37,433 nt of DNA from a virus. Its lineage: Duplodnaviria; Heunggongvirae; Uroviricota; Caudoviricetes. Under the pieces are notes generated by a model. It was given only the letters and a program-made list of their open reading frames with translations, was not told the DNA's origin and searched no databases. The position numbers and the translations under genes are program-made. The stretch lies in the IMG/VR virus record IMGVR_UViG_2718217716_000005; one strand, given 5' to 3'. Numbering within the stretch: position 1 is the first letter of the stretch; each line of letters opens with the position of its first letter. Below, piece after piece: positions 893 through 37,433 of this stretch.

Positions 893-1149
893 GGCCGCAT
901 AACCTCCTGCTTTGTTGTTGATATCTTTATCACTCAATCGATCGACAAAAACGATCGATTTGATTTATTTAATTGATACAACAAATAACACGAAATGTCA
1001 TTAGCGAAAATTTATGAGTTTGATCACTAATTTTAAAAGGTGCTGTAACGCATAAGTGCTGAATAATTGTACATTTGAATGCCGCAAAGCAAAAAAAATA
1101 AACTAATTGATAAAAATCAATCAGTTAACTGCAAGCGTAAGAGGCTGTT
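893..1149. promoter_or_regulatory. AT-rich divergent control region: candidate mom-operon promoter with three GATC sites and palindromes, plus promoter of the plus-strand gene at 1150
   Basis: GATC at 940-943, 953-956, 1022-1025. Inverted repeat atcgatcg / cgatcgat around 937-959. Possible -35 TTGAAT / -10 TAAACT for the plus strand. Confidence 0.45.
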
Positions 1150-2247: not shown

Positions 2248-4317
2248 TTACGCGTTATTCACTTCCACCACAATGCTGTCAATCAGCACCGGGTATGTTG
2301 CACCGTTAGTGATATCGGTCACGCGTAACTTGTCTGCCGTAAACGTGCCAACCGGAGACTGCGACAGCATGAATGGTGTCCCGTCCTTACCATCAATGAC
2401 CGGCGTCACCTCAATACTGTTGTTACCGGCAAAACGGAAGCCCAGCGTATGCCACTCATTATCAAATGCGCTGAATGCCCCCAGCTTCGTGTTCTGCGCC
2501 GTGTTTCCCTTGTGATACATCACGTTAAGGTCTGTGGCATCGCTCTGTACGTAGAACGACGCCAGCAGGTTATGACCGGCATTACCTTCCAGAGTAACCC
2601 CTTGTGGCAGGGCAGAAACCGGCCAGTACAGCGCCAGTGCGTACTGATTAGCCGTAAGCGCGCCATCGAGTTTAAAACGACAACTGACAAGACCACCTTT
2701 ACCCAGCAGGTCCGCACCATTACCGGCATCATGCTCAAGATACCAGGAGGATTTGCCTGTTTCCTTGGTCAGTTTCATGGCCTTACCACTACCAGCTCCG
2801 GCATCATCCACGATTTGAGCCTTACCGCCTCCGGCAGTCCAGCCCTGTGGTGCCAGCTGTCCTTCAGACTCTGATGCCCGGTAAGCAAACAGGGTGCTCA
2901 TCGTCGTGGTGTCAGCCGGTGGTGTGGACGGTGTATCCGGCGATGGTGTTGATGGCGTGTCAGGTGATGGTTTTTCATCCGGCTGTGTCACAACCGGTCC
3001 CTGCATCACTTCAGGTGTGCGTCCCGCATGGAGCAGAATGGCTGAGGCCAGACGGTCTGAAATAATGCCCCTGCGTGCCCATGAGCTGAAATGGCTGTCA
3101 CGCTGTGTCGAGACAAAACTGCCCTGGGTACGGGATGCCGCACCGTAATACCCGACAGTCACAATATCCGGGTCTTCCGCCTGAGCATTCGTTGGCGTGT
3201 TCTGTCCATTCTCATCCGTCAGGAAAGGTACAAAGAAAATATTCTGAGTTTCCTTGCCTTTGTAGCCACCGTATACCGCCTCATATTTATCGGTGCCAGC
3301 GTTTTTCCAGTAATACGTGGTATCACCACAAATCCACGGTACCGTGCCAGCATTTCCACTCACGCACTGCGCAGCAAGCGGAGACAGGTCAGTTCTGAAC
3401 TGCTGAACCATGGTCGTGAATAAACCATTATGCTGCTGACTTCCCGATGCAAGGTCTGCTTCTCCCTGCATCCAGACCACAGCCAGAAGTTTGTTTTTCG
3501 GGTTCTTCGCCAGCGCCGCTCTGGTACGGCTTACCAGGTCCTGATACAGAGGTTTACCGACTCCCCAGCGTGAAGAATCAGCGGAAGCACCGCTGGTCTC
3601 ACTGAATGAACCGTCCGCCCCGGTGGTAAATGCTGACCCACCACGGCAACAGGGCACCAGAAGAATCCCGGCATTCTGCGGGATATAAGGCAGCAGTTTT
3701 TTGGCAATATGCAGCCCCTGACCGACAGTCCCGTACTGGCCTTTTGCCAGATCAGCTTTCGGGTGGTTTATCCCGCTCATATCCTGCACATCATGCAGGC
3801 AGTGATCTGCCGGAATGATGTCGTTATATGTACACGACGTACCGTCGGGCGTGACCGTGCTGCGGCGTGCCAGTTGCTTAATCCGTGGGTCCGGGCGGTC
3901 AAATGAATCCGGTAACGGAAGCCCTTCACCATAGGCCATGCCATTTGATTGTCCCGCCAGTGGGATCACATAGTAATACTCCGGCTCTGTGGTACTGCCA
4001 TTCGTGCTGCCGGAAGGCCCGGCGTTATCCGGTGCATTCCAGTCGGAGGGCGTGAGTGTTCCGGCCACGTCAGCTGTAATCGGAATGATGCCGGTCACGC
4101 CTGAACTGGTGATTTCTGCACTGGGATTACCGGATACCGGCATTATCCATAATGGCTCTTTCGTGCTGAAGCGGATCACGCAGTCTGCGAAGGTGATCCC
4201 CCCTTTATTACCCGAAGGCCTGAAAGGACTTTCAATAAATGCCACCGTGCCACCGGCAACCTTGACTGAAAACTCTCCGGGCATGGCGGAGAGCATTTTC
4301 CACTGGGAGTCTGACAT
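2248..4317 (-). CDS. Multidomain protein: N-terminal region, SGNH/SASA-type O-acetylesterase-like domain, Pro/Thr linker, C-terminal lectin-like beta domain (689 aa)
   Basis: Motifs YVIPLAGQSNGMAYGEG (GQSN nucleophile motif), VVWMQGEAD, DSHF (Asp/His of triad); linker PSPDTPSTPSPDTPSTPP; C-terminal ~220 aa Gly/Asn/Thr-rich. Sits where Mu carries the G segment and gin. Confidence 0.7.
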   Translation of the reverse strand: MSDSQWKMLSAMPGEFSVKVAGGTVAFIESPFRPSGNKGGITFADCVIRFSTKEPLWIMPVSGNPSAEITSSGVTGIIPITADVAGTLTPSDWNAPDNAGPSGSTNGSTTEPEYYYVIPLAGQSNGMAYGEGLPLPDSFDRPDPRIKQLARRSTVTPDGTSCTYNDIIPADHCLHDVQDMSGINHPKADLAKGQYGTVGQGLHIAKKLLPYIPQNAGILLVPCCRGGSAFTTGADGSFSETSGASADSSRWGVGKPLYQDLVSRTRAALAKNPKNKLLAVVWMQGEADLASGSQQHNGLFTTMVQQFRTDLSPLAAQCVSGNAGTVPWICGDTTYYWKNAGTDKYEAVYGGYKGKETQNIFFVPFLTDENGQNTPTNAQAEDPDIVTVGYYGAASRTQGSFVSTQRDSHFSSWARRGIISDRLASAILLHAGRTPEVMQGPVVTQPDEKPSPDTPSTPSPDTPSTPPADTTTMSTLFAYRASESEGQLAPQGWTAGGGKAQIVDDAGAGSGKAMKLTKETGKSSWYLEHDAGNGADLLGKGGLVSCRFKLDGALTANQYALALYWPVSALPQGVTLEGNAGHNLLASFYVQSDATDLNVMYHKGNTAQNTKLGAFSAFDNEWHTLGFRFAGNNSIEVTPVIDGKDGTPFMLSQSPVGTFTADKLRVTDITNGATYPVLIDSIVVEVNNA

Positions 4318-4621
4318 CGTCTTTTCTGCCTGTTTCTGAATTAAACAGAGTCAGAATAACAACCGCTGATAAATATGTGTTTTGCGGAAATTCAAAAAAA
4401 GCGTCACAGTACTTTTCGTGACGGAGCCGGTGAGGCAGGAACATAACGACAAAGAATGGACAGGCCAATACGATAACCGCATATTACCGGCTTATAATTG
4501 ATTTAACGATTCATGACGCTGCGTTCAGCACCTGAAAATATGCGTTATTTCAGAAACCCCTTGCCTGTATATGGCAATAGTATTGTTCCTGTTTTTATCA
4601 TTGATTTACATGGTGATGTTT

Positions 4622-11192: not shown

Positions 11193-13236
11193 AGTTCCCT
11201 CCGTTCCAGACGTTCACATCCAGGCCATGCTGTGCGGTATCATCCACATCAATACTGCGCGCCCGCCAGCCTTCAGGGGCCACAAGCTCCACCCGTGCGG
11301 CGGTTTTCGCGGTGGCCTGTCCGCCGTTTTCGTCACTGCTGCCACGCAGTTTCTGCCAGGCCTGCGTCAGCCAGCCCCCCAGATAATCACCGAGATAGCT
11401 GCCCACTGTGGAACCAATGGCAACCCCGACCGGACCGGCAGCAGCCCCCAGCGCGCCACCGGCGATACTTCCGGCAAGGGAACCCACGGCACCGGCTTTA
11501 TCGGCTGCGCTGGCGCTGCTGTCCAGCAGTACAGGAGCCGCCATGGCACCGGCCCACAGGGCACCACCACCCAGCCGACCGGCACCACGGAACAGCCCGG
11601 CAAAACGCCCCAGCCCCATGCGGTTTCCGGCCGCCGTTAGCAGACCACCGGCACGGCTCATCATACGACCGAAGAAGCCCTGTTTACCGGCGCTCTCCGC
11701 CAGCTGCTCACCGGCGGTCACGACGGTCGTGACACCCCGCCCGCGTCCGGGGCCGCGTTTTTTACGGCCTCGCACGGTTTTGCCGTCACCGCTGACCACC
11801 ACATCCCCGCCACCTGAGGCCATGCCACCCGCAGGCCAGTTGGTGACCAGCACGGGCTGAACGGCAGCAGGATTTACCCCGGTAAGGAAATTCAGGAAGC
11901 GGCCAGCGCGTCCGGGCTGCGTTCCCGGCACAGTGGTCTGCGGTTTGCGGAAGGGCGACGTCAGCACGGAGGTCATCGCCATACCATAGCGTAAGGGGGT
12001 TGCACCAAGACGTAATGCCCCCGTCCCCGCAAACCTGAGCACCTTCAGCGCGCGGGAGGCGAGATACATATACATCAGGTATTTTGCGGCGGTCTGCGCC
12101 CCCTGACCAATACGATCCAGTGCATCGCCATAACCGGCGTCGCGCAGTGCCTGAAGCGTTTCCCTGACTTTCTGAATGGCCCGGTAAAAGCCGGTTGCAG
12201 CGTCTCTGGCATACTCGAATCCCTGATTCAGGGCTGAGGCCGTCTGTGTGGCCAGCTTATCCTGTAAGCCGCTTTTCTGTGCCGCATCAGCATAATCCAG
12301 AAAGCCTTTCAGGCTCTTTTTCAGGCTGTCAAACGGTCCCTTTGCCATCACCTCACGGGCAAATCCGTCCCAGACGTCGCCCATCATGGACGTCATTCCC
12401 GTCCATGAGTTCATGGCGTTTTTCTGGGCACCTTTTGCCTGTTCGGCCATCACCTGAAATAACAGGCGAATGCTGTCCGGCCCCAGTTTTCCCTTGCTTC
12501 CCAGATCACGAAGCGTTTTCTGGTTAACCCCCAGCTTATCAGCCAGCAACTGGTAAACGTTGATCCCGTAATCCGTAAGAATATTTGCATCTTCCGCCTG
12601 GATACTCTGACGGGCAAACATCTGCTTCAGTTGCATGGAAGCACCCTGAGCACGGTCAAGAGACCATCGCTGAAGTGCCCCCTGATCCTCAAGCATGGTG
12701 ATATAACTTCGTGCCTGTGCATCGGTCATCCCAAAACCACGGCTTGAAGCATACTCCTGCATAACACCAGACAATCCCCATGTGGTGTCTTTGGCGTTTT
12801 GCTCTGCCCACTTACGAATTTCTTCTGTTTTTTCCGTATCACCTTTGTTCAGAGCGTTAAGGCGAAGAATATGATCTTCCATCTCTGCGGCCGGGCGGAT
12901 AAAGGCTTTATTAAAACCGTAGACCGCAGCCCCTCCCGCCAGCATCCCGTAAAGGTTGCTTATCCGCCCGATGGTGCCGGTAATGCTGCCCTGCAGGCGG
13001 TCAAAATCTGACGTTACCGTGCGGATGCTGCCACGAACACCGGCAAGCGTTCGCTGCATACGGGAGCCGACAAGTTCTGTTTCCTGACCGGCCCGGCGGG
13101 CTGCATTTCCAAGACCACCCAGGCCTGTCCTGCCGGAACGGGAGAACGCCCCCAGCTCCTGTGACCACTGGCGGGATTTGGCGGAAATATTGCCGAGTAA
13201 ATCGACAATCAGGGAGGCTTTCAGGTTTTTTGCCAT
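11179..13236 (-). CDS. Tail tape measure protein
   Basis: 685-aa Gly/Ala-rich ORF with helical N-terminal half, downstream of tube and chaperone genes. Confidence 0.8.
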   Translation of the reverse strand: MAKNLKASLIVDLLGNISAKSRQWSQELGAFSRSGRTGLGGLGNAARRAGQETELVGSRMQRTLAGVRGSIRTVTSDFDRLQGSITGTIGRISNLYGMLAGGAAVYGFNKAFIRPAAEMEDHILRLNALNKGDTEKTEEIRKWAEQNAKDTTWGLSGVMQEYASSRGFGMTDAQARSYITMLEDQGALQRWSLDRAQGASMQLKQMFARQSIQAEDANILTDYGINVYQLLADKLGVNQKTLRDLGSKGKLGPDSIRLLFQVMAEQAKGAQKNAMNSWTGMTSMMGDVWDGFAREVMAKGPFDSLKKSLKGFLDYADAAQKSGLQDKLATQTASALNQGFEYARDAATGFYRAIQKVRETLQALRDAGYGDALDRIGQGAQTAAKYLMYMYLASRALKVLRFAGTGALRLGATPLRYGMAMTSVLTSPFRKPQTTVPGTQPGRAGRFLNFLTGVNPAAVQPVLVTNWPAGGMASGGGDVVVSGDGKTVRGRKKRGPGRGRGVTTVVTAGEQLAESAGKQGFFGRMMSRAGGLLTAAGNRMGLGRFAGLFRGAGRLGGGALWAGAMAAPVLLDSSASAADKAGAVGSLAGSIAGGALGAAAGPVGVAIGSTVGSYLGDYLGGWLTQAWQKLRGSSDENGGQATAKTAARVELVAPEGWRARSIDVDDTAQHGLDVNVWNGGNYGLY

Positions 13237-16063: not shown

Positions 16064-16330
16064 ATGTCATCAGAAAATCAACCATCACCAGAGATTCAGT
16101 TCGCTCATGACCTTGTAAATGGGTTAGCTATTGCGGTGAATATTCTGATCCAGAAACTGGAACAGGACGGAACACTGTCCATGAATGAATTTCTGGACAA
16201 ACTTCGTCAGCAACACACTGGTTTACTCGCACAGAACCAGAAAACTATCGCTCATGGCGTCAACCTGCTTTTGGGATCGCTTGAGTATGTGACGACCACG
16301 AAGAGCGACCAGACAAATCAAGCTCACTAA
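16064..16330 (+). CDS. Hypothetical helical protein (88 aa), opposite-strand insertion inside the tail cluster
   Basis: ATG at 16064 preceded by TAAGGAG at 5-nt spacing. Lower GC than flanking genes. Followed by its own stem-loop. Confidence 0.55.
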   Translation: MSSENQPSPEIQFAHDLVNGLAIAVNILIQKLEQDGTLSMNEFLDKLRQQHTGLLAQNQKTIAHGVNLLLGSLEYVTTTKSDQTNQAH

Positions 16331-17874: not shown

Positions 17875-18822
17875 TTACAGATAATCCGCGACAACCAGCT
17901 CCAGCTTGCCCTTCATCTCGTTAGAGACGGTGGTGTTACCGTCCGCGAACAGCTCGCGCTCCAGCAGCTGCACCGCCTGTTTTTCCAGCGAGGTGGGGAC
18001 AACAATATGGGTGGGTTTGATACCGAGTTTGCGGCCACCGTCAGCCTTAAAGTCACGCATGGCTGACCAGCCGTGCCACAACGCATCCAGCGTCAGCGGT
18101 GACTGCATCATGTAGGCCATCTGCCAGAAGCCGTAGCCCACATTGCGACGGGCGGAAGCACCGAACACAAACTCGTTATCAGTAAACGCACGGCCTTCAT
18201 CGACTTTTGTCTGGGCAACCAGTTCGGCCTTGCGGCGATCCTGGTAAATCAGCGGTTTTACCGCGCGGGAGCAGTCAAGCAGATACCAGGCCGGGCCGCT
18301 GTAATCCGCCTGTGCACCGACAGAGCCGGTTTTTGCCACAAACATATTGCTGACCATCTGTGCATCACCGGAGCCATCCACTTTGGGGTAAACAGGGTGT
18401 TCGATATCAAAGAAGTTCTGGCCGTCATAGCAGGCCGCATTCAGACCATCACGCAGTGCAGCAAAGACCAGTTCATCCGGTTGTGCCGCCGCAGCGCGCC
18501 CCATCTCCTGGAACAACGGGGAGTAGATGCCAAGATTGTCGTCTTCAAAGTCATCGCGGCTAATGGCAACGGTGCCTTCAAAGGTTTTGTTCACGATGGC
18601 GTAGCCATAGGCTTTCATCTTCTCGATGACGCGGGAGCCGATCCACTCACGGAACTGCGGGAACTGCCCCAGCCAGCCGTAGGTGTTGGATTTCGACGTG
18701 GACGGTACGGTCATCGCAATTTTCTGGTACTGCGACGGAGCCATGGACATCCCGGCCTGAAAATCAGAACGGTAGCCCGTCATCAGGGCGGTGATCATCG
18801 CCGGTGTAATCGGGGTAGGCAT
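17875..18822 (-). CDS. Major head (capsid) protein (Mu T-like)
   Basis: 315-aa ORF immediately downstream of the protease/scaffold gene; followed by a GC-rich hairpin at 17840-17865. Confidence 0.8.
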   Translation of the reverse strand: MPTPITPAMITALMTGYRSDFQAGMSMAPSQYQKIAMTVPSTSKSNTYGWLGQFPQFREWIGSRVIEKMKAYGYAIVNKTFEGTVAISRDDFEDDNLGIYSPLFQEMGRAAAAQPDELVFAALRDGLNAACYDGQNFFDIEHPVYPKVDGSGDAQMVSNMFVAKTGSVGAQADYSGPAWYLLDCSRAVKPLIYQDRRKAELVAQTKVDEGRAFTDNEFVFGASARRNVGYGFWQMAYMMQSPLTLDALWHGWSAMRDFKADGGRKLGIKPTHIVVPTSLEKQAVQLLERELFADGNTTVSNEMKGKLELVVADYL

Positions 18823-19946
18823 TATTGCATTTCCTCTTTCATTTTCAGGAACTCGGCTTCGGTTTTACCCAGCAGATGGGCGGCGGCGATATCTTCAGCC
18901 GACAGCACAGCGGTGGCGGTCTTTTTATCCGGCACGGTCACGGTGTCGGTCTGAAGAGTGGTCAGAGCCGCAACCGGCTGGCGGGCGTCAAGCTGTGCAG
19001 AAAGTGCCGCAACACCAATCTGTTGTCCGAGTCCTTCCATGTATCCGCGTTCGCTTTTGAAAATGCGTCCTTCGGACTCGGCCTTATCCAGCAACTGCTC
19101 CAGCGTGGTGCTGCCGTGTTGTGCCGACAACGCGACATATTCGGTACGCAGGGCGTTATACGTCTCAACGGGCACGTATTTCGTCAGATCAATAGTGCCG
19201 CCAGTTGGTGTGCCTTTTGCGGTTTCCAGCTCTGCCGACAGGCTGGCAACCTGTGTTTTCAGGGTGTCGTGCGCATCCGCACGGGTTTTGATCCCGGTAA
19301 GGGCAGACAGCGCCGCCGTGCCCAGTTCCGGCGTAAATTCGTCACCGTCAGCCACGGTCAGACCGAGCGCCGTCAGCAACTGGCGTAATTGCTCATTCAT
19401 GGAGGTGTCCTTTAAAGGAGGGTTTAAGGCGTTATAAAGGTCATCCGCCGACAGTGCGGCGACAGGATTCATGCCAGTCAGACCGGGGTCACCGGTAATA
19501 GCCAGCATCCGGAGCTCAACAGGTTCACCGGTGATTTCGTCATAACTAATCACCGGGGAAAACCAGGGAAATTCGTTATTGCGCAGGTGTTCAATGGCCG
19601 GAGGGTTCCAGTCCGGACGCACTTCAAAACCACGCTCTTCACTGAAACGGAAGTTCTCCGGCGAGGCCATGACAAAACCGGCAGCCGGTGCCGCATGCCC
19701 CTCAATCAGGGTCTGGTGGTTGTAGTCAATCTTCACCGGCTGATTGAGCGCCACAACCCGGGATACCATGCGCCCAACGGTCGCACGGTTAATCAGCCAG
19801 CCTTCAGCCGGTTTTTCCGGGCGACCGTCACGGGCCTTTACCCGACCGGCTGGCATGATCTGACACCAGTCACCGTCCCCGTCTGCGGACAGGCTGATGG
19901 CATTCAGAATGGCATAAGCAAGTTTGGGCGTGTTTTTCGTCTTCAT
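18822..19946 (-). CDS. Head maturation protease / scaffold (Mu I-like)
   Basis: 374-aa ORF; ATG overlaps the downstream capsid gene start. Confidence 0.75.
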   Translation of the reverse strand: MKTKNTPKLAYAILNAISLSADGDGDWCQIMPAGRVKARDGRPEKPAEGWLINRATVGRMVSRVVALNQPVKIDYNHQTLIEGHAAPAAGFVMASPENFRFSEERGFEVRPDWNPPAIEHLRNNEFPWFSPVISYDEITGEPVELRMLAITGDPGLTGMNPVAALSADDLYNALNPPLKDTSMNEQLRQLLTALGLTVADGDEFTPELGTAALSALTGIKTRADAHDTLKTQVASLSAELETAKGTPTGGTIDLTKYVPVETYNALRTEYVALSAQHGSTTLEQLLDKAESEGRIFKSERGYMEGLGQQIGVAALSAQLDARQPVAALTTLQTDTVTVPDKKTATAVLSAEDIAAAHLLGKTEAEFLKMKEEMQ

Positions 19947-20123
19947 TCCGGCAGCATAAGCCGGTGTTTTTCAGGGCAGGTTTTGCGGGACTTCAGAAAG
20001 TGCTGACAGGGGAAAAATGAGAAAGGCGCTTCACGCAGATTTTAAAGCCCGTTAAATACAGGTTAGAAAATCACGACACGCGCCTGAAGAGGGTAAGGTA
20101 ATGTATTTGTATACCTTAAACCA
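19947..20123. promoter_or_regulatory. G-I intergenic region: candidate late promoter and candidate central strong gyrase site
   Basis: 177-bp non-coding gap at the genome centre between G-like and I-like genes, where Mu has P_I and its strong gyrase site. Contains hairpins (ccggc-agcataa-gccgg + T5; taaggta...tacctta). No motif-level confirmation. Confidence 0.35.
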
Positions 20124-20597: not shown

Positions 20598-20718
20598 ATT
20601 GCCTCCGCATAAAGGATGAATATAAAATAAACAGGCGGTCAGTGTACGCTTAACTGGTAAAGTCGGTGCCTGCCTCCGGGTGGATCATGTATGCGGGTTC
20701 GACCCCCGCCACTGACCG

Positions 20719-26420: not shown

Positions 26421-26725
26421 TGTGTTTTTTTCCTTACAGCCTGCTCCAGCAGCAGTTCGTTCTGGTGGGAGACGGATTTCAGGGTGGCATTGGTGGCCTT
26501 AAGCTCACCGCGCAGGGTGGTGATTTCGATATTGAGTCTGTTCACCTCCTGCTGCGTGGGCAGGCCGGAAATCCGGCTTTCCACCCGCTCAACCCGGTCG
26601 GAGAGTTTTTCAAAGGCCTCGCGGGGGACAAAGGTTTTGCGCATCAGCGCCATAAAGATCCCCCCGGCCGTGGCTGTTGCCGACAGGATCGGCACGACAT
26701 AATCTTTAACGATGCTGACCCACAT
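26417..26725 (-). CDS. Small membrane protein with N-terminal transmembrane helix and coiled-coil (Mu gp25-like, candidate lysis accessory protein)
   Basis: N-terminus VVPILSATATAGGIFMALM is hydrophobic, followed by a helical region; located just after the spanin genes. Confidence 0.5.
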   Translation of the reverse strand: MWVSIVKDYVVPILSATATAGGIFMALMRKTFVPREAFEKLSDRVERVESRISGLPTQQEVNRLNIEITTLRGELKATNATLKSVSHQNELLLEQAVRKKTQ

Positions 26726-26933
26726 GACCGGCCTCCATGATGCTCTGGCAGTTCACACAACGGATGGCATCCGGCACGGCAACCAGACGGGCGGCCGGAA
26801 TGTCACCCCCGCAGTCCGCGCATACACGCCTGCCCGGAGTCTCCTCCACCCGGCACTTACGTGTCAGCCGGTCACAAAGGGCGCGTTCTGTTGCCCGCTC
26901 CACGACTGCCTGAGCACAATCTGAATCATCCAT
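26706..26933 (-). CDS. TraR/DksA-family C4 zinc-finger protein
   Basis: CADCGGDIP...CVNCQ pair of CxxC motifs. Start at the internal Met at 26931-26933 with AAGGAAAAGG ribosome-binding site. Confidence 0.55.
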   Translation of the reverse strand: MDDSDCAQAVVERATERALCDRLTRKCRVEETPGRRVCADCGGDIPAARLVAVPDAIRCVNCQSIMEAGHVGQHR

Positions 26934-27535: not shown

Positions 27536-27608
27536 CGCAGCCACAGCACACCCCGGAGCACCACAACGACACACAACAGCGCAATCATGAGTGGTCGCCA
27601 GAAGCGGT

Positions 27609-28109
27609 TCAGACTTTCGGCAAATCGTAGCGACATAACCATTCATCCGCCGAACGGCGGGCCTCAAGGCCGGGGAGTTTTACCCCCTTTGAATAAATCC
27701 AGCGGATATACTGCTTACAGGACGCGGGCATCTGCCCGGCATTGATAAGGCGCAGGAGCGTGGAGTTGCGAAAGTTCGTTTCACCGGCCCAGAAAATCCA
27801 GGAGGCCAGCGCCACCGTCTGACCACGGGTAAGCGGCACCTGAACATGACGATCGATAGCCGCAAAGGCCCATTTCATGTCCTTTTCCAGCAGCTCCAGA
27901 CACTCTTCATCAGTTTTTGTCATACCCGGTTTCACATCCGGGCCGGTATGGCCGTAACAGATGGTGGGGGTGCCGGTGGGATCAATGTACGTGGTGTTTT
28001 CTTTCCCTTCCCAGTAGCCGGTGTAGTGCGTGGCAATGGTGAACGTCCCGGCTCCGGCCAGAACAAGGGCAATCAGCTTTTTACGCAGGGGTGCGGGGAG
28101 TTTTGGCAT
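27609..28109 (-). CDS. Endolysin, lysozyme-like with SAR-type N-terminal signal-anchor
   Basis: N-terminus KKLIALVLAGAGTFTIA is a Gly/Ala-rich weak transmembrane segment. Catalytic-region pattern E-x8-D-x5-T (YWEGK...DPTG.PTICYGHTG). Confidence 0.75.
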   Translation of the reverse strand: MPKLPAPLRKKLIALVLAGAGTFTIATHYTGYWEGKENTTYIDPTGTPTICYGHTGPDVKPGMTKTDEECLELLEKDMKWAFAAIDRHVQVPLTRGQTVALASWIFWAGETNFRNSTLLRLINAGQMPASCKQYIRWIYSKGVKLPGLEARRSADEWLCRYDLPKV

Positions 28110-28110
28110 T

Positions 28111-28148
28111 GTTACGCTGTCTCATGGTGTTCTCTGAGTCAGCGTAAC
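28111..28148. promoter_or_regulatory. Perfect 9-bp inverted repeat (gttacgctg ... cagcgtaac, 20-nt spacer) immediately upstream of the endolysin start codon
   Basis: Seen directly; the 3' arm ends 1 nt before the lys ATG on the minus strand. Confidence 0.5.
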
Positions 28149-28180
28149 CGTGGGAAAAAGTGGGCAGGATTTGCGGAATA

Positions 28181-28603
28181 TCAGAAAAGCCGGGGCTGCG
28201 TGCGTTCCTGATGCAGGCGGCGCTGGGTGCGGATAACGGAGTAAATCTGCGTCTCTGACATCTGGTAGTGGCGGCGCAGGGTTTCAATTTTTTCGCCCTG
28301 GCTCCAGCGGGAAAAAATTTCATTATTGCGCAGTTCGGTGAAAAGGGATTCACCGACCGGGAGATAATAACCACGCCCGCCCATGTACCCGGCCTGTGCG
28401 GCCGCAACTTTACGGGCAAGCATTCCCGCCTGAGCAGATTCAATCCCCTGACGGTGCAGTTCAGCACTGATCACATCAACCAGGTCCCGCAGCGTGCCGG
28501 GCCAGTTCTTTTTCAGCTCATCATCAGGAATGTCATCCAGACGGTCAATCAGCGCGTGCAGCTGTTCGCTGTCACCAAACATGCTCATCTGTGTTTCAGC
28601 CAT
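28181..28603 (-). CDS. Mor/C-family transcriptional activator (140 aa), the only member in the window
   Basis: Size and position directly upstream of lys. C-terminal helix-turn-helix-like IETLRRHYQMSETQIYSVIRTQRR, GGAGG ribosome-binding site. Confidence 0.7.
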   Translation of the reverse strand: MAETQMSMFGDSEQLHALIDRLDDIPDDELKKNWPGTLRDLVDVISAELHRQGIESAQAGMLARKVAAAQAGYMGGRGYYLPVGESLFTELRNNEIFSRWSQGEKIETLRRHYQMSETQIYSVIRTQRRLHQERTQPRLF

Positions 28604-28645
28604 ACCCGCCTCCGGTCATCATTACACAGGGCAAGTTTAAAATAA

Positions 28646-28669
28646 AAATCCCGCGCTGTGGCGGGATTT
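28646..28669. terminator. Hairpin aaatcccgc-gctgtg-gcgggattt (bidirectional terminator-like), left copy of a ~35-bp direct repeat
   Basis: 9-bp perfect stem flanked by A-run and T-run. Near-identical copy at 29291-29314. Confidence 0.6.
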
Positions 28670-28942
28670 AGGAATGTAACGAATAAACGAGCTTAACAAT
28701 ACCTGGACAAATATTGATCAGTTAATCGTGTAAGTGTATGATAAATATCATTTATTTATTCTTCTGAATATACCGATTGTTTTTTTACCACTGATGAGAT
28801 CATCACTGGTATATGCGAGCTGGTTGTCTTTAATTATCAAACATGCTTTGCCGTAAAAAAGCATGGAAAAAGACATAAAAACTAACGCTCTGAAGATAAC
28901 AAACCGTTCCTTTAACGTTTTTTTATACAGGACTATGTTCAT

Positions 28943-29284
28943 ATGACTTTTGGCCCCATCATTGAGTTTGAATCAGGCTATACCGATGACATGTACCAGT
29001 CCCTGCAGGATAATGGTATCAGATACACCCCTATTGCAGCTTTATCATACAATGTAACCGAAATGGTTGAGTTGCTCCATGCGGTTAACACGCCAGAAAC
29101 ATGGGCCGCTATTGTTCTCATCGTAAAAAAATGGATAAACCGACACAAGGATGCCAGTGTTGAATTAACCATGAATGAGAACGGGCAACTGACATCCGTA
29201 AAAATAAACGGCTACAACGTAAATGATCTGGATAAGCTTGGAGTACCCAGTTTGATTCGAGCTTCTTTTAAATCAGAGGAGTAA
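28943..29284 (+). CDS. Hypothetical protein (113 aa), opposite-strand low-GC insertion between GemA and the Mor/C activator
   Basis: ATG at 28943 after a very AT-rich 270-bp leader, followed immediately by a terminator hairpin. No recognisable motif. Confidence 0.6.
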   Translation: MTFGPIIEFESGYTDDMYQSLQDNGIRYTPIAALSYNVTEMVELLHAVNTPETWAAIVLIVKKWINRHKDASVELTMNENGQLTSVKINGYNVNDLDKLGVPSLIRASFKSEE

Positions 29285-29290
29285 AATAAG

Positions 29291-29314
29291 AAATCCCGCA
29301 CTGTGGCGGGATTT
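29291..29314. terminator. Hairpin aaatcccgc-actgtg-gcgggattt, right copy of the direct repeat
   Basis: Sits between the stop of the plus-strand gene (29284) and the stop of gemA (29318). Confidence 0.6.
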
Positions 29315-29317
29315 GGG

Positions 29318-29827
29318 TTAACAGGGGAATGATTTTTCATACAGCCTGCAAACGCGCTCATAACTCATCACTGCACGCTCCGACATATCCAGGGCTGCCA
29401 GCATTTTGCGGCGGTGCCAGCGTTTGAGACGCTCCAGCACATCAGAGGCCAGCTCGGGGTGTTGCTCCAGCCACTGCCAGTTAGCCACACCTTCGCCGCC
29501 GTTCTGCGCGGCCGTCTGCGATTTCACCCAGCGGTTAAGGGCCGTTTCCGCACCATCAGAAATAAAGCCCTGCCGGTGCATCACTTTCCAGATGGCGCGA
29601 ATTTTGGCGGTCACCGTACCCGGCTTTAAGGCCCGGTTAACCGGTTTCTGACGCACTTTAAAACCGCGTTTTTTGAAAACATCCAGTACGCGGGATAACT
29701 CATCCGGTGACATATCCCGGCAACTGGCTTTACCGGTGGCTGCCAGCAGTGCGGATGTATAGGTTTCATCATCCAGAGCAAGCTCGCGTTTTGCCACATG
29801 AATGGCAGATATCAGTTTTCCTCTCAT
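29318..29827 (-). CDS. gemA: GemA-like early regulatory protein
   Basis: 169-aa ORF with N-terminal pattern LISAIHVAKRELALDDETY...GKASCRDMSPDEL...FKKRGF typical of the Mu GemA family; last gene of the early block. Confidence 0.6.
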   Translation of the reverse strand: MRGKLISAIHVAKRELALDDETYTSALLAATGKASCRDMSPDELSRVLDVFKKRGFKVRQKPVNRALKPGTVTAKIRAIWKVMHRQGFISDGAETALNRWVKSQTAAQNGGEGVANWQWLEQHPELASDVLERLKRWHRRKMLAALDMSERAVMSYERVCRLYEKSFPC

Positions 29828-30135
29828 ACCGTATTTACCTTTTTACGGACATGGAAAGCCTTTTCTGGCTCATTCCACCGGATATGATGCGTTGGCGGAA
29901 TAATCATTATGTGCCAGCCATCTCTGGTTGTTATTCGACAGAAAAACTCACCGCTGTATAACACAATGGCCTGCTGAATAAGCGCATCCGCAGCCAGCTC
30001 AAGCAGATATCTTTTATCAAAAAGGCTGATAATTTTCCGGCATAACCACCGGGTGATAACAAATGCGCCGAAAAACGATGTGATATATAAACACCAGTAC
30101 AGCAGAGAAATATTGTCCGTTATTTGCTCATCCAT
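29824..30135 (-). CDS. Hypothetical early protein with N-terminal transmembrane segment (103 aa)
   Basis: ORF overlapping both neighbours; hydrophobic LLYWCLYITSFFGAFVI. Confidence 0.45.
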   Translation of the reverse strand: MDEQITDNISLLYWCLYITSFFGAFVITRWLCRKIISLFDKRYLLELAADALIQQAIVLYSGEFFCRITTRDGWHIMIIPPTHHIRWNEPEKAFHVRKKVNTV

Positions 30136-30460
30136 TGTGTATCTCCCGTAATTCCGGTAAAGCCGAAATATGGCACCAGTGCGTCACCTGTCCATCCTCA
30201 TCTTCAAGGCAGGCTCCGGTTTCTTCATCAACAAAAAAGCCTTCATACCCCATATGACCGATGCGCAGTTCCTGCCGGTGGTCATACTGAACAATCAGCA
30301 CAACAGCCTCCATATCAGGTGGGAAAGCATCATTCAGTGAATGCCAGGGATAACCTCGTAAATCCCCGAAATAAACACCGGTCAGCGTTCCGCCACAGAG
30401 CGGCATTCCGGCGGCACACACAAGAGGTTCATCTGATTCAACAAATAAGGTCGTTATCAT
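30128..30460 (-). CDS. Hypothetical early protein (110 aa)
   Basis: ORF with overlapping start and stop in the early operon. Confidence 0.45.
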   Translation of the reverse strand: MITTLFVESDEPLVCAAGMPLCGGTLTGVYFGDLRGYPWHSLNDAFPPDMEAVVLIVQYDHRQELRIGHMGYEGFFVDEETGACLEDEDGQVTHWCHISALPELREIHNG

Positions 30461-31008
30461 GGCGTTAACTCCTGTAATACAGCGTCCCCGGCAGTCCGAC
30501 GACGGTGATAAATAAAACTCACCGTGCCCTCGGATAATTCAAATTTCTCGCCTATTTCCCGGAAGGTAAGGCGTCGTGGCGACTCTGCATCCCGTAATTC
30601 ACGAATAAGACGAACATCATCGTCAGGTATACGGGTGAAGGGCAGCAATTCTCCGTATTTTTTCATGCTTATGCCCATATATCGCGCCCGATTATGAACA
30701 GAGTCCCGGTCTCGCCCCAGATATTCTCCTATTTGCTTACCGGTCATCGTTCTGGCATTTTTTCGGATAAATTTATCTTCATCAGGTTTAAATCTGGGAC
30801 GTTTGCATTTGAGCAACTGCGGGTAAATACCGCGTAATAAAATAATCCGGTTATATACTCCCCAGTAACTTCTTTTTACTCTGACAGCAATATCCTTAAC
30901 CGGGGTGGACGAATAAAGCGCAATCAGTAGCGCATCTTCTTCAGGTGTCCATGCGCGGACATGAGCGGGTGCCCGACCTTTTCGTCCCATGGGTTGTAAT
31001 ATCATCAT
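30457..31008 (-). CDS. Hypothetical DNA-binding early protein with several helix-turn-helix-like segments (183 aa)
   Basis: WTPEEDALLIALY (SANT/Myb-like), TGKQIGEYLGRDRDSVHNRARYMG, LTFREIGEKFELSEGTVSFIYHRRR. Confidence 0.5.
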   Translation of the reverse strand: MMILQPMGRKGRAPAHVRAWTPEEDALLIALYSSTPVKDIAVRVKRSYWGVYNRIILLRGIYPQLLKCKRPRFKPDEDKFIRKNARTMTGKQIGEYLGRDRDSVHNRARYMGISMKKYGELLPFTRIPDDDVRLIRELRDAESPRRLTFREIGEKFELSEGTVSFIYHRRRTAGDAVLQELTP

Positions 31009-31011
31009 GCA

Positions 31012-31527
31012 TCACCCCCTGACTCGCTTTTCAGCAGCATAAAACTCATCAGACAGTATTTCGGTCATTTTCCGTTTTGCGGAATCATCTTCGCACTGAA
31101 GGTAAATCACATCGTCAACGCAGAACCAGTTCACGGGGCCAAACAGTATTGCTGAGAAGTCAATGCCCAACCAGAACAACAGGGCATCGGTTCTGGCATA
31201 CGTGACGGGCGAATATTCACGCCACAGAATGTTCAGTTCATCAGAGGCAACACGCAGGGTTTTAGGTATACGTGATGTGCGCGGCGTGCAGCTCCAGCCA
31301 TTCGACGCAGTCGGTTTTCGCCATAAGTCGCGATGAAAAGGATATTTGTCATCCATAAAGCGCAGCCCCTTAAAACAAAATCCACTGATACCGGATACAA
31401 ATACCGGGCGGCACGCAACATTCAGCACGGCCTCAAGGCGTTTTGCCTCATCTTTTACCGTCTGGCAGTCCTGCTGGTATTTTTGCCACGCAGCCAGCGC
31501 GGAAGGGTTTGATGTTTTAAAGAACAT
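31012..31527 (-). CDS. Hypothetical early protein (171 aa)
   Basis: ORF in the early operon, tightly packed with neighbours. Confidence 0.45.
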   Translation of the reverse strand: MFFKTSNPSALAAWQKYQQDCQTVKDEAKRLEAVLNVACRPVFVSGISGFCFKGLRFMDDKYPFHRDLWRKPTASNGWSCTPRTSRIPKTLRVASDELNILWREYSPVTYARTDALLFWLGIDFSAILFGPVNWFCVDDVIYLQCEDDSAKRKMTEILSDEFYAAEKRVRG

Positions 31528-33880: not shown

Positions 33881-34108
33881 TTAGCTGACTTGTTTTGCAC
33901 CAACAGAACGGCATATTCCACTGTAAACCTCTGTCGCACCTTCGCGATCAAGTCCGGCAGATATCACCATTCGCGTGCGGTCATTAAATTCAAAAAGTAA
34001 ATCGCCACATTCTTTATTTTCGGCCAGTGAAATCACTTTCACGTTATCGAAATTAACCAGGTAAAAGCGTCCGTAGATATCAGGAATATTAAATGCAGCC
34101 ATAATCAC
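33881..34108 (-). CDS. Small early protein immediately after B (Mu kil position)
   Basis: 75-aa ORF whose ATG overlaps the B stop; size and position as Mu kil, no sequence-level confirmation. Confidence 0.4.
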   Translation of the reverse strand: MIMAAFNIPDIYGRFYLVNFDNVKVISLAENKECGDLLFEFNDRTRMVISAGLDREGATEVYSGICRSVGAKQVS

Positions 34109-35037
34109 ACCTGTGAGAGTAATTCAGGGTTGGTATAAACCTCTTTAAAGGCCGCATTAATATGTTTTTCTGTCAGCGCGGCACCTTCACCGCTGGCGGT
34201 GATCCACGCCTGGTTAAGCGTATGTGTCAGAACGCGTAAGGCTCCCGGCTTTTCAGCGATAGCCTGCATGACAGCCAGCTCGGCCTCACCACTAATCCCC
34301 CATGCCCTGGCAATAGCCAGCACATCCGCCTTTTTGGCCTTGCGAAGTTGTTTTGTACGGGCAAGACGGCTGAACAGGCGCGATAAATCATCAACGGTGC
34401 GGCGTCCACCCTTAAACAGTCCGCGCGGGTTACCAATAAGCACCATCCCGATCCCCGTGGCGTCCTGGATTGCACGCAGTTGTTCCAGACCGTCAATACC
34501 AAGATGATCCGCCTCATCAACAATCACCAGTCCACGAGTTCCCATCAGGCGACGGCGGATGGCGCGGGATAACGCCCCCTTGTTCGCGCGGGTGTAATCA
34601 ATCCCCAGTTCCTCTGCCAGCTCCAGCATACACTCCGTGACGCTGGAATGCGCGGGCGACAGGGTGATCATCCAGGTGTTCGGTTGCTCCTGACAGTAAT
34701 TGCGGGCCGTGGCCGTTTTACCCACACCCGGTACGCCCACAATGACGTTAATACAGCCCATCAGGCGAACCGCCTGAAACAGCGCGCGCAGCTCCTGGAC
34801 TGTCTGCGTTTCCACAAACTGCGGCGGTTCCGGCAGTGCGCTTTGTTTATTCCAGTTCTCATACCAGGAACGCAGGGAAGCAGCCACAGCAGCGTTATCG
34901 CCTTTATATTTTCCCTTACGGAAAGCCGATAATGTGCCGTCGGAAATTCCCGCCTCTCTGGCGATGGCATACTGCGTCAGTACGCCGCCATCAATAAGTT
35001 CATCAATGGTCTTGATTACATCGTTTATATCGGTCAT
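34105..35037 (-). CDS. B: MuB-like transposition ATPase / target DNA activator
   Basis: Walker A VGVPGVGKT, DEAD-like IVDEADHL, and ...KPGALRVL... motifs matching Mu B; downstream of the transposase. Confidence 0.85.
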   Translation of the reverse strand: MTDINDVIKTIDELIDGGVLTQYAIAREAGISDGTLSAFRKGKYKGDNAAVAASLRSWYENWNKQSALPEPPQFVETQTVQELRALFQAVRLMGCINVIVGVPGVGKTATARNYCQEQPNTWMITLSPAHSSVTECMLELAEELGIDYTRANKGALSRAIRRRLMGTRGLVIVDEADHLGIDGLEQLRAIQDATGIGMVLIGNPRGLFKGGRRTVDDLSRLFSRLARTKQLRKAKKADVLAIARAWGISGEAELAVMQAIAEKPGALRVLTHTLNQAWITASGEGAALTEKHINAAFKEVYTNPELLSQV

Positions 35038-35112: not shown

Positions 35113-37200
35113 TCAGGCCAGAGGGTCATTTTCTTTTAATTTCGCTTCAAGCAGCTGCAATCCCCGCTGGAAATTACGCTCGTATTCTTCATCAGGTTCA
35201 TCCTCAGCGACCGGTTGCTGAACGGTCACTGTATTACCCACAGGGCGGTATATATTTTCCAGCCATGGCTCCTGTGGCTTGTGCTCCAGCACGTTGACAA
35301 CCTCATCCTCGGCATCACGGATTTTTTCCTCTGCGCGTTTACGCATACCTTTAAGGCGCTGCTGCTGTTTGTAGTATTCCGCGCTGACCGGGAAGGCTTC
35401 GCGTTTATTGCCGTCCCATACCGCCTCGCAAATCACGCTGCCATCCGGGCGACGCACGGTAATTCGTTCGGCATCATGAATGTCATAGCTGATAAGCACT
35501 TTGCGGCCATGTTCATCACGCAGCTCGGGCGCGTAGTAAATATTATTCAGCCAGCGTATTTCACAGCGTCTTACAGGGCGTTCCACCATCGGCCGGAACA
35601 TGTCCCGCAGTTCAACATCGGACAGCCATTCAATTTCCGTGTCCTCTTCCGCCAGGCGTTTTTTTCTGAACTCCGCCGGGCTGTAATGTTTGCCGTTCGG
35701 CTTCATGGGTAATTCATCGTGCGGCCGGCTGTTGTACCACTCAACGCCGTCACGAATGGCATCAATCAGTTCAGACCAGGACGGTAAATCACGCATCGCT
35801 GACTGCTGCCGGGCGTTCAGCCGCTTGCCCTGTTGCAGGGCAGTGAATGCCGAGCGTAAATCGCGGTTGGTTTTACGTAACGTCTCGCGATCTGCACCTT
35901 TCCCGAAATAGGTGCGGTATTTACGGGCTATGCGCATCGGTAATGTGCGGTTAAGCCGTTCGATAATGCCCCGTCCCTGCGGGTTACCGGCAATCCCTGT
36001 CGGGTGATTAATCCCCAGTCGTGGCAGGATCCCCACAATCTCCTTATCCAGGATGTCGGCGGTTTCCCCGGAGCCATTATCCGAGTAATACAGAAACGGT
36101 TTGCCGTGATGGCGAATACCGTGCTGTATGGCACCGGCTACGGCGAAAACATTTTCAGCCAGGTCAAGGCTCCAGCCCACCACAAAGCGCGTGCCACCGT
36201 CGATAACAAAGGTCACTTCCGGTGCAAATGGCCGCCCGTGAACCGGGTGCGTGCATTTCAGCTTCATGCCGTGACCGTCACCAATCCAGACATAATTCAC
36301 CGGCATTTTTGACCAGTCGCGGCGCGTGAACCCCTCAAGCTGGCGGTATTCACTGCCGGTCACCCGGCCTTTTTGTTTCACCACTTCCGGCAGCTTCTTC
36401 ATTGCGCGGCGAATGGTGTCATAAGACGGCATGATATCGAGCATATAAGGCTCATCAGCGTGCCGCTGCTGCCATTCAGCAACAAAATCCTCGTAAGCCT
36501 CGGTCATTGGTCGGCCGTTTGACTGGCGATACTGCGCCAGAAACTCGGGGAGCCAGTTAATATCTTCGGCTTTTATTTCCTGACGTTTACCCGGTGCCAG
36601 TAAAAGAAGGCGTTCAGCGGCGTTCTGCGCCTTGTTAAAGGCCGCAATCCAGCGTTTCAGCGTGATTTCACTCAACGCGCGGCGGTTTCCCTTTTTGGCG
36701 TTCGCCGTCTCAACCATTGCCACAATGCGCTCGTCCAGTTGTGAGCGTGACAGGCGGTCAACGATAAAACGGATGGCTTTAGCGCAGTTGAAACCGGGTT
36801 GTTGCGCGAATTTCAGCACCTCGCTGACAATCGCAATTCGTGCTTCAGCCACCTGGCGCTGTTTTTCTGTCAGGGCATTGAGGCGTTCGACCATCAGTTG
36901 GGGTGAACCGCGATATGCCTCCACCGCATCAACCACGTCAGGTGAGCGTCTGGCCTTTGTCACCACCGGAGCCGGTGATTCGTCGGCTTTTTGCGTCATC
37001 AGTTGCAGGGCGTAGCGTTCACGTAAAGCCTGCTGCGTTACTTCAGGTAAACAGTCGATGCTGTATTCAAAACCTTTACAGCCTTTCTGGCGGCGTCTGC
37101 TGGTTTCGCTGGTTGCATACTTCCTGATTGAATAGCGGACGCCTTGCTCCGTTCCGGGCATTCCCGGTAATCCAACCAGCTCTTTAACTGAAGCAAACAT
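35113..37200 (-). CDS. A: Mu-type DDE transposase A
   Basis: 695-aa protein with N-terminal DNA-binding region, central DDE core (...WIGDGHGMK...YYSDNGSGE...), and C-terminal ...ISYDIHDAERITVRRPDGSVICEAVWDGNKRE... resembling the MuA C-terminus. Confidence 0.9.
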   Translation of the reverse strand: MFASVKELVGLPGMPGTEQGVRYSIRKYATSETSRRRQKGCKGFEYSIDCLPEVTQQALRERYALQLMTQKADESPAPVVTKARRSPDVVDAVEAYRGSPQLMVERLNALTEKQRQVAEARIAIVSEVLKFAQQPGFNCAKAIRFIVDRLSRSQLDERIVAMVETANAKKGNRRALSEITLKRWIAAFNKAQNAAERLLLLAPGKRQEIKAEDINWLPEFLAQYRQSNGRPMTEAYEDFVAEWQQRHADEPYMLDIMPSYDTIRRAMKKLPEVVKQKGRVTGSEYRQLEGFTRRDWSKMPVNYVWIGDGHGMKLKCTHPVHGRPFAPEVTFVIDGGTRFVVGWSLDLAENVFAVAGAIQHGIRHHGKPFLYYSDNGSGETADILDKEIVGILPRLGINHPTGIAGNPQGRGIIERLNRTLPMRIARKYRTYFGKGADRETLRKTNRDLRSAFTALQQGKRLNARQQSAMRDLPSWSELIDAIRDGVEWYNSRPHDELPMKPNGKHYSPAEFRKKRLAEEDTEIEWLSDVELRDMFRPMVERPVRRCEIRWLNNIYYAPELRDEHGRKVLISYDIHDAERITVRRPDGSVICEAVWDGNKREAFPVSAEYYKQQQRLKGMRKRAEEKIRDAEDEVVNVLEHKPQEPWLENIYRPVGNTVTVQQPVAEDEPDEEYERNFQRGLQLLEAKLKENDPLA

Positions 37201-37202
37201 AA

Positions 37203-37433
37203 TTATGCGACCTTACGAATGTAGCGGCTGGGCCAAATCTCCTCGGGTGGTACACCCAGACATTCCGCAATAATCCCCTCATACTTGGGAACATGGCGGT
37301 ATACCGCGTTGTACAGGTTGTTCTGACCTACGCCAGCTTTACGGGCCAGCGCCCTCATACTTCCTTCTCTGGCTCTGACTTCCCCCAAGATTCTTTGAGG
37401 ATGCCAATCAGGCTTAACTTCATTTCTCGCCAT
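37203..37433 (-). CDS. ner: Ner-like DNA-binding early regulator
   Basis: 76-aa protein with ...DWHP...II...LG..PEEIWPSRY... pattern of Mu Ner family; stop overlaps the transposase start; ATG is the last codon of the window. Confidence 0.8.
   Translation of the reverse strand: MARNEVKPDWHPQRILGEVRAREGSMRALARKAGVGQNNLYNAVYRHVPKYEGIIAECLGVPPEEIWPSRYIRKVA

Follow-up and report, generated by a model that had tools for sequence, protein, structure and literature searches.

A single Mor/C-family late activator between gemA and lys in a Mu-like prophage of the Sp18 type that appears to be intact

Introduction

Bacteriophage Mu encodes two activators of the Mor/C family, Mor (gp17) and C (gp21), which act as a relay from Mor to C. 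Members of this family have invariant residues in a beta-strand linker, which in C are G70, G71, Y75, P77 and G79 (PMC2582627). The Mor site is 16 bp long and is centred at -43.5 (PMC4390567), and C requires the region from -52 to -34 (PMC2582627). Other transposable phages have been described with one gene of this kind. The lys gene is located directly after a single mor in phages 3927AP2, phiMhaMu2 and SuMu (Niu et al., PMC4553209), and in another paper "Mor/C" was used as a single core marker of transposable phages. Prophage Sp18 of E. coli O157 Sakai was predicted to be intact and its DNA is efficiently packaged (Asadulghani et al., PMC2669165), a result that concerns packaging and not plaque formation. 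The DNA analysed here is the IMG/VR virus record IMGVR_UViG_2718217716_000005, a stretch of 37,433 nucleotides that we refer to as the window. An earlier note on this DNA took Mu as its reference and drew attention to the presence of one Mor/C-like gene where Mu has two.

Results

The window is apparently an intact Mu-like prophage of the Sp18 type from E. coli. Positions 27600-31100 are 100% identical, over their full length, to E. coli M1 and M3 (from mouse). In M3 the prophage is located in flgL, and the repressor gene lies just past the high end of the window. The sense strand of the phage is the minus strand, and the window spans from the mom stop codon (ORF 1-933, Pfam Mom, E = 1.4e-77) to a ner-like gene (37203-37433). 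The order of the genes on the minus strand is that found in Mu: ner, the transposase gene A (35113-37200), B (34105-35037), gam, homologues of gp11 and gp12, the gene for a 183-aa helix-turn-helix protein, gemA, the Mor-family gene, lys, the head and tail genes, and mom. Table 1 shows the features that are discussed below. The M3 prophage interrupts flgL within the flagellar gene cluster (30834-31487 of locus L002, outside the window), while a related prophage of the O157 strain F1273 sits in gsiA; these two insertion points are consistent with near-random transposition.

Table 1. Coordinates of the features at and around the activator gene and of the predicted late promoters (positions in the window).
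Feature	Position	Strand	Basis
gemA, last early-operon gene	29318..29827	-	Pfam GemA, 6.4e-30; PGAP "gp16 family protein"
Terminator hairpin 1, directly after the gemA stop codon	29291..29314	-	Terminator scan; AAATCCCGC-cacagt-GCGGGATTT and T-rich tail
Inserted cargo, 113-aa ORF (28943-29284) with AT-rich leader	28671..29290	+	GC content; absence in relatives
Terminator hairpin 2, near-identical copy, then TTTTTATTTTAAACT	28646..28669	-	Terminator scan
Single Mor/C-family late activator, 140 aa	28181..28603	-	Pfam, PHROG, phmmer, linker residues
Predicted activator site of Plys, TTTCTGatattcCGCAAA, 23 nt, TACGCT	28170..28187	-	Exact dyad match
lys (endolysin), first late gene	27609..28109	-	Pfam Phage_lysozyme, 1e-36
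Predicted activator site of PI, TTTCTGaagtccCGCAAA, 23 nt, TATGCT	19982..19999	-	Second exact dyad match
Third predicted late promoter, TTTTTGaatttcCGCAAA, 22 nt, TATTCT	4381..4398	-	One mismatch to the dyad
183-aa early DNA-binding protein, three repeats, Mu gp9/E8 homologue	30457..31008	-	phrog_323, 1e-55

Two other features of the late genes were observed. A gene for a TraR/DksA-type zinc-finger protein (26706-26933, minus strand) is located in the lysis/late region; it matched Pfam zf-dskA_traR (1.8e-11) and TIGR02419 (65 bits, above the cutoff) and is conserved in the relatives L006, L007 and L011. The small ORF that was tested from the equivalent part of Mu, gp24, gave no TraR/DksA-type match. 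Proteins of this type bind RNA polymerase. A feature annotated by RefSeq/PGAP as "tRNA-OTHER" (~20638-20717, plus strand) lies between the F-like and G-like genes and opposite to the phage genes. ARAGORN identified no tRNA at this position and Rfam gave nothing; the O157 prophage has nearly the same intergenic sequence.

The 140-aa ORF that the earlier note described as a Mor/C-like protein directly before lys was compared with several profiles, and the description held. The ORF lies downstream of gemA and 71 nt upstream of lys. It matched the Pfam Mor profile (PF08765) with an E value of 6.5e-31 and 107 bits (cutoff 24.9), over profile positions 2-107 of 107, as well as phrog_532, "late transcriptional activator" (E = 2.6e-44), and a family profile built in this work (E = 4.8e-51). 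The protein carries the linker pattern GG..Y.P.G as G75, G76, Y80, P82 and G84, residues that are invariant or nearly invariant across alignments of 36 and nine sequences. Residues 1-70 are acidic, with a ratio of D/E to K/R of 13:7, and residues 71-140 are basic, with a ratio of 7:11; towards its C terminus the protein aligns with that part of the family profile which represents the helix-turn-helix. The match to the whole domain, the linker residues, a size of ~100-150 aa, and the acidic N-terminal and basic C-terminal halves place the protein in the Mor/C family. The amino acid sequence shares 39.7% identity with Mu C and 27% with Mu Mor, and phmmer produced E values of 3e-31 against C and 1.6e-12 against Mor. 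As judged from these alignments, the activator has Mu C, not Mu Mor, as its nearer relative in Mu.

The presence of additional members of the family was assessed in 718 stop-to-stop segments of at least 30 aa, taken from all six frames of the window and searched with the HMMER filters off. When Mu Mor, Mu C and the 140-aa protein were used as phmmer queries, no second Mor/C ORF was found among the 718 segments (next best E = 0.03-0.05). A family profile, consisting of 141 diverse representatives from a search of 1.84 billion proteins plus the three queries, identified no second Mor/C ORF in the same segments either (next best E = 1.4). As a positive control, this profile recovered both Mu Mor (7.4e-34) and Mu C (4.9e-47). 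ORF 33881-34108, which had given a phmmer E value of 0.052 to Mu Mor, was rejected as noise, and the match was gone when the family profile was used. Only one profile match was found in the 43.5-kb locus L002, which extends past the repressor end outside the window. A Mor/C profile search of all ORFs had been proposed in the earlier note as a check of its view that the gene is the only one of its family; both the single-sequence and the profile searches recovered the 140-aa ORF alone.

To describe how general this layout is, 53 related loci were compiled: the window, the O157 prophage, a Salmonella contig, a metagenomic contig, a Citrobacter genome and 48 IMG/VR contigs. The Citrobacter locus and the 48 viral contigs were found with an alignment of six sequences; a search of genome contigs with the 140-aa protein alone found no related locus. 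All 53 loci have exactly one Mor/C ORF and the order gemA, activator, lysozyme, and their activators are 46-99% identical to the 140-aa protein. Two paralogous Mor/C genes, as in the three-stage cascade of Mu, are thus absent from the window, from L002 and from the 53 related loci. A middle operon of the Mu type (gp18-20 plus C) is likewise absent between the early terminator and lys, since in the insertion-free relatives gemA and the activator gene are separated by 69-70 nt, and the activator gene and lys by 71 nt. The gemA-activator-lys segment was found in 231-232 of 5426 complete E. coli genomes.

The phages of other groups were examined in the same manner. In a phage collection, 43 records matched the 140-aa protein by tblastn at 57 places, and among the matches listed only Mu and its close relatives (D108, SfMu, Mu_3F6, PhiR68_1 and Yersinia phages) matched at two places. 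The family profile produced one match each in the whole genomes of BcepMu, D3112 and SuMu, and two in that of Mu. The matches in SuMu and D3112 were weak (E = 0.0025 and 0.052), and each falls on the gene to which the annotation assigns the activator. The annotation of KS10 includes one Mor, located behind a gemA-like gene. The survey of loci, the other Mu-like phages and the published layout indicate that the arrangement is known and that the two-activator relay of Mu is the exception. One activator beside gemA is the common state in transposable phages, and the single-activator layout is ordinary and already known, having been published before (PMC4553209). The expectation of two activators as the norm therefore had to be given up: this state is peculiar to the Mu genus, while BcepMu, D3112, SuMu and KS10 have one each.

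The region between gemA and the activator gene includes two nearly identical terminator hairpins. Hairpin 2, with the tail TTTTTATTTT, is located 42 nt upstream of the activator ATG. The RNA folds of hairpins 1 and 2 have energies of -13.2 kcal/mol (z -4.1) and -13.4 kcal/mol (z -4.3), respectively, and 37 of the 51 related loci have the hairpin core no more than 130 nt before the activator gene. Between the two copies there is an insertion of 714 nt with a GC content of 0.32-0.44, as compared with 0.55-0.58 in the flanks. Its leader includes a promoter-like sequence, TTGATC-17-TATGAT (28714-28742, plus strand), and the 113-aa ORF had no match in Pfam, PHROG, NCBIfam or PADLOC. The earlier note proposed that this opposite-strand insertion had taken the position of mor. 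However, the relatives that do not have the insertion also show the order gemA, single activator, lys; in those of the O157:H7 Sp18 type, gemA is followed by a 69-nt spacer with one terminator hairpin, the single activator gene and lys. This layout implies that one and the same gene stands both in the slot behind gemA and in the one ahead of lys. The distance between gemA and the activator gene could be measured in 51 related loci and is 59-95 nt in 35, 1 nt in one and 0.49-1.5 kb in 15; none of the insertions in the related loci encodes a Mor/C protein. Strain STEC2018-607 has other cargo between two copies of the hairpin. By its base composition and its distribution among relatives, the opposite-strand ORF is cargo that varies between strains, with the terminator as its point of entry.

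The terminator between gemA and the activator gene was also observed to be a hot spot for cargo. The DNA inserted in the 15 loci with the longer distances differs among them and is often found between two hairpin copies, and the cargo ORFs have no family match, PADLOC included. The loci with cargo are the window and L003, L015, L022, L028, L042-L043, L046-L050, L052 and L054-L056. A second opposite-strand ORF of the window (16064-16330, plus strand, 88 aa, no family match) lies where the late genes leave a gap of 459 nt. It is missing from the O157 relative and is therefore probably a further insertion of cargo.

The regions upstream of the late genes were inspected for a common element. A perfect match to TTWCTG-N6-CGCAAA occurs exactly twice in the window, where ~0.01 would be expected from base frequencies alone. 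One is located before lys and the other upstream of the head protease gene (18822-19946), and the distance from CGCAAA to the -10-like hexamer is 23 nt in both cases, so that the spacing at PI equals that at Plys. The shared element is longer than the dyad and consists of cTTTTCTGatattcCGCAAAtcctgccc followed by TACGCT before lys, and of cTTTCTGaagtccCGCAAAacctgccc followed by TATGCT before the head protease gene. The third site is located on the sense strand, 63 nt upstream of the ATG of a gene for a 689-aa protein (2248-4317). All three dyad sites are found on the sense strand, upstream of genes and 22-23 nt before a TAnnCT hexamer. The dyad is conserved in the O157 prophage, and TTACTG-N6-CGCAAA is found in lineages with ~55%-identical activators. 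If the hexamer is taken as positions -12 to -7, the centre of the dyad is at about -44, which fits both the centre of the Mor site at -43.5 (PMC4390567) and the region from -52 to -34 needed by C (PMC2582627). The dyad sites are probably late promoters of this prophage family, and we infer that the lone activator acts directly on them.

Other candidate sites were considered. The segment CAAAnCCnGCC was dropped as the activator site in favour of the upstream dyad: its matches at 13170 and 25086 are in coding sequence with no suitably spaced -10, and the segment is missing from the promoter of the 689-aa gene. The search of the window with the dyad pattern revealed no equivalent of the Mu PP or Pmom sites, and a late-promoter dyad of the Pmom type, looked for upstream of com/mom, was not found. 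A GATC cluster (gatcgtttttgtcgatcgatt, ~940-965, minus strand) is present upstream of com and is conserved in the O157 prophage, with no activator dyad visible. The cluster recalls the Dam/OxyR control region of Mu mom. The 689-aa protein (minus strand), encoded between the tail-fibre region and com/mom, has a DUF6645 and a sialate O-acetylesterase-like (SASA) domain, and its gene comes with a terminator and with a predicted late promoter of its own. The protein may be a surface-modifying or receptor-destroying enzyme.

The 183-aa protein had been put forward in the earlier note as a candidate substitute for the missing activator, with a Mor/C-like helix-turn-helix at its end. The peptide quoted in support, LTFREIGEKFELSEGTVSFIYHRRR, is indeed present in the ORF, but the likeness to Mor/C was not sustained. 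The protein scored 1.4-2.1 bits in hmmsearch (window-wide E = 7.1), its last helix-turn-helix aligning with that of Mor/C at 1.4 bits, and reached a probability of 7.7% in hhalign. In a Pfam search with E values up to 0.1 it had no Mor match and produced only sub-threshold matches to generic helix-turn-helix families. Residues 66-166 are 33% identical to Mu gp9/E8 (BLASTP, E = 2e-10). The protein is longer than Mu gp9/E8 and has three Myb/SANT-like or helix-turn-helix repeats. As a gp9/E8 homologue it belongs to a kind of protein that Mu has besides Mor and C. By these profile comparisons the 183-aa protein is not a Mor/C homologue, and nothing ties it to late control.

Discussion

Three options had been offered to explain a single activator: one protein does both jobs, the prophage is defective in regulation, or another early protein substitutes. 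The window has a single Mor/C homologue, and the evidence favours the first. We consider it quite likely that transcription follows a two-step programme from early to late genes with one C-like Mor/C activator and no middle stage, as in Mu-like phages outside the Mu genus. The sequences themselves show the single copy, the gene order with its conservation and the common promoter element; for activator binding, read-through and timing we infer the following scheme. A dimer of the activator would bind the imperfect dyad TTTCTG-N6-CGCAAA, ~44 bp upstream of the transcription start, at promoters that have a -10 and lack a -35. This dyad precedes lys, the head protease gene and the accessory gene for the 689-aa protein, where the bound activator would recruit sigma-70 RNA polymerase in the manner of Mu C at Plys and Pmom. 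As there is no middle operon, a second activator would not be needed. The activator gene itself would be expressed mostly by partial read-through of the early transcript past the terminator, which is the least certain step, and a weak promoter consisting of a -10 only, formed by the hexamer after the T-run of the terminator, may add to its expression.

The control of the activator gene deserves a closer look. With a terminator before the gene, and two in series in this strain, read-through could be very low. No sigma-70 promoter reaching nine of 12 matches was found on the sense strand upstream of the activator gene, and the full dyad TTTCTG-N6-CGCAAA does not occur there, even when two mismatches are allowed. 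A -10-like hexamer with no -35 follows the T-run of the terminator in every lineage; it is TAAACT here and TATAGT, TATATT, TATACT or TATAAT elsewhere. Conservation of a hexamer without a -35 could mean that another factor is needed, which would reopen the question of the earlier note in another form. A possible homology of the leader cctgtgTAATGA, upstream of the activator gene, to cctgtgATGAAT of Mu Pm was suggested by a similar spacing to the hairpin. It was rejected because the Mu -10, TATCCT, which was placed using -57 = G from PMC4390567, aligns here with TGCCCT, which does not have the critical A at position 2, and because the leader of the O157 relatives differs.

The same evidence bears on the alternatives. 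A positive feedback loop could replace the Mor-to-C relay if the terminator hairpin doubled as an activator-responsive promoter, so that a trickle of read-through amplified itself. The CAAAnCCnGCC segment (CAAATCCTGCC) of Plys and PI is matched in the hairpin by its 5' arm, CAAATCCCGCC. Exact matches to this segment occur at four places in the window, always on the sense strand; the late promoters account for two of them and hairpin 1 for another, and hairpin 2 is one base off. The -35-less hexamer after the T-run in every lineage would suit such a promoter, and in Mu the hairpin after mor is overlapped by Pm, with the Mor site at the position inferred here from its centre at -43.5 (PMC4390567). 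However, the dyad upstream of the activator gene is missing at the tolerance given above, and in several insertion-bearing loci the hairpin copy proximal to the activator gene has lost the shared arm. Furthermore, the resemblance is partial, the distance from the shared segment to the -10 exceeds that of the late promoters by 2-4 bp, and an A-tract followed by a CCCGC stem is common in terminators, being found also in the one after the 689-aa gene. We favour read-through and, for these last three reasons, regard self-activation as a minor, unlikely alternative. If true, it would be a one-protein replacement for the Mor-to-C relay of Mu, located at the same terminator that is the preferred entry point of cargo. 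It is very unlikely that a non-homologous early protein, either the 183-aa protein or GemA, does the job of Mor and is needed for transcription of the activator gene. A -10-like element with no -35 is what activator-dependent promoters have, and the 183-aa protein, with its DNA-binding repeats, is encoded at the same place in the relatives. Nevertheless, Mu carries the homologue gp9/E8 in addition to Mor, the 183-aa protein has no significant similarity to Mor/C, and its relatives are found in unrelated mycobacterial, Klebsiella and Vibrio phages, often annotated as HNH endonuclease or DNA methylase. GemA has no reported role in middle or late transcription in the literature cited.

A defect in regulation, in which the loss of mor or the double terminator with its insertion blocks the late switch, is likewise very unlikely. 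In its favour, this strain has two serial terminators, and a cargo gene in convergent orientation, in the interval from gemA to the activator gene, and only 15 of the 51 related loci have an insertion at this site. On the other hand, the relatives all lack a mor that could have been lost, the genes annotated in the phage look intact, and the identical insertion-bearing arrangement recurs in the independent viral contig L015. The occurrence of insertions between gemA and the activator gene in many lineages argues for tolerance. The layout as such is widespread, both in E. coli genomes, at the frequency given above, and across lineages whose activators are 46% identical. The gemA-activator-lys segments of Sakai Sp18 and of the O157 prophage are 99.7% identical over their full length, the Sp18 activator is annotated as "positive regulator of late transcription protein", and the packaging of Sp18 DNA argues against a regulatory defect inherent in the layout.

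These results correct an expectation centred on Mu, as the Mor-to-C relay belongs to the Mu genus, and they carry little weight as a discovery. The by-products, namely the predicted late-promoter element, the module of terminator and -10-like hexamer before the activator gene, and the cargo hot spot, are modestly useful for the annotation of several hundred E. coli and Shigella prophages.

The 140-aa activator resembles Mu C in several respects. Both belong to the same Pfam family and are 140 aa long, and both are encoded after the terminator of the early operon and directly before lys. The predicted targets also have a -10, lack a -35 and include an imperfect dyad in the region of the C footprint (-52 to -34). 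Unlike the gene for C, the gene described here is located directly after gemA, with no mor and no gp18-20 middle-operon genes upstream, and the predicted site TTTCTG-N6-CGCAAA was not seen in the Plys region of Mu. The resemblance to Mu Mor lies in the family and in the slot right after gemA, which is also occupied in BcepMu, KS10 and D3112, but the identity is only 27%. Moreover, mor overlaps gemA in Mu with no terminator before it, whereas a terminator intervenes here, and the one promoter activated by Mor is Pm, whose operon has no counterpart in the window. A further resemblance is to the phages with one activator gene beside gemA, which are Sp18, SuMu, 3927AP2, phiMhaMu2, BcepMu, KS10 and D3112. 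In BcepMu, KS10 and D3112 the activator gene differs in that it overlaps gemA, with no terminator between them. Sp18, SuMu and the Mannheimia phages have the lysis gene directly behind the activator gene, as is the case here. The Sp18 activator is 83-84% identical to the 140-aa protein, and what distinguishes this strain from the other single-activator phages is the 714-nt cargo insertion together with the duplicated terminator.
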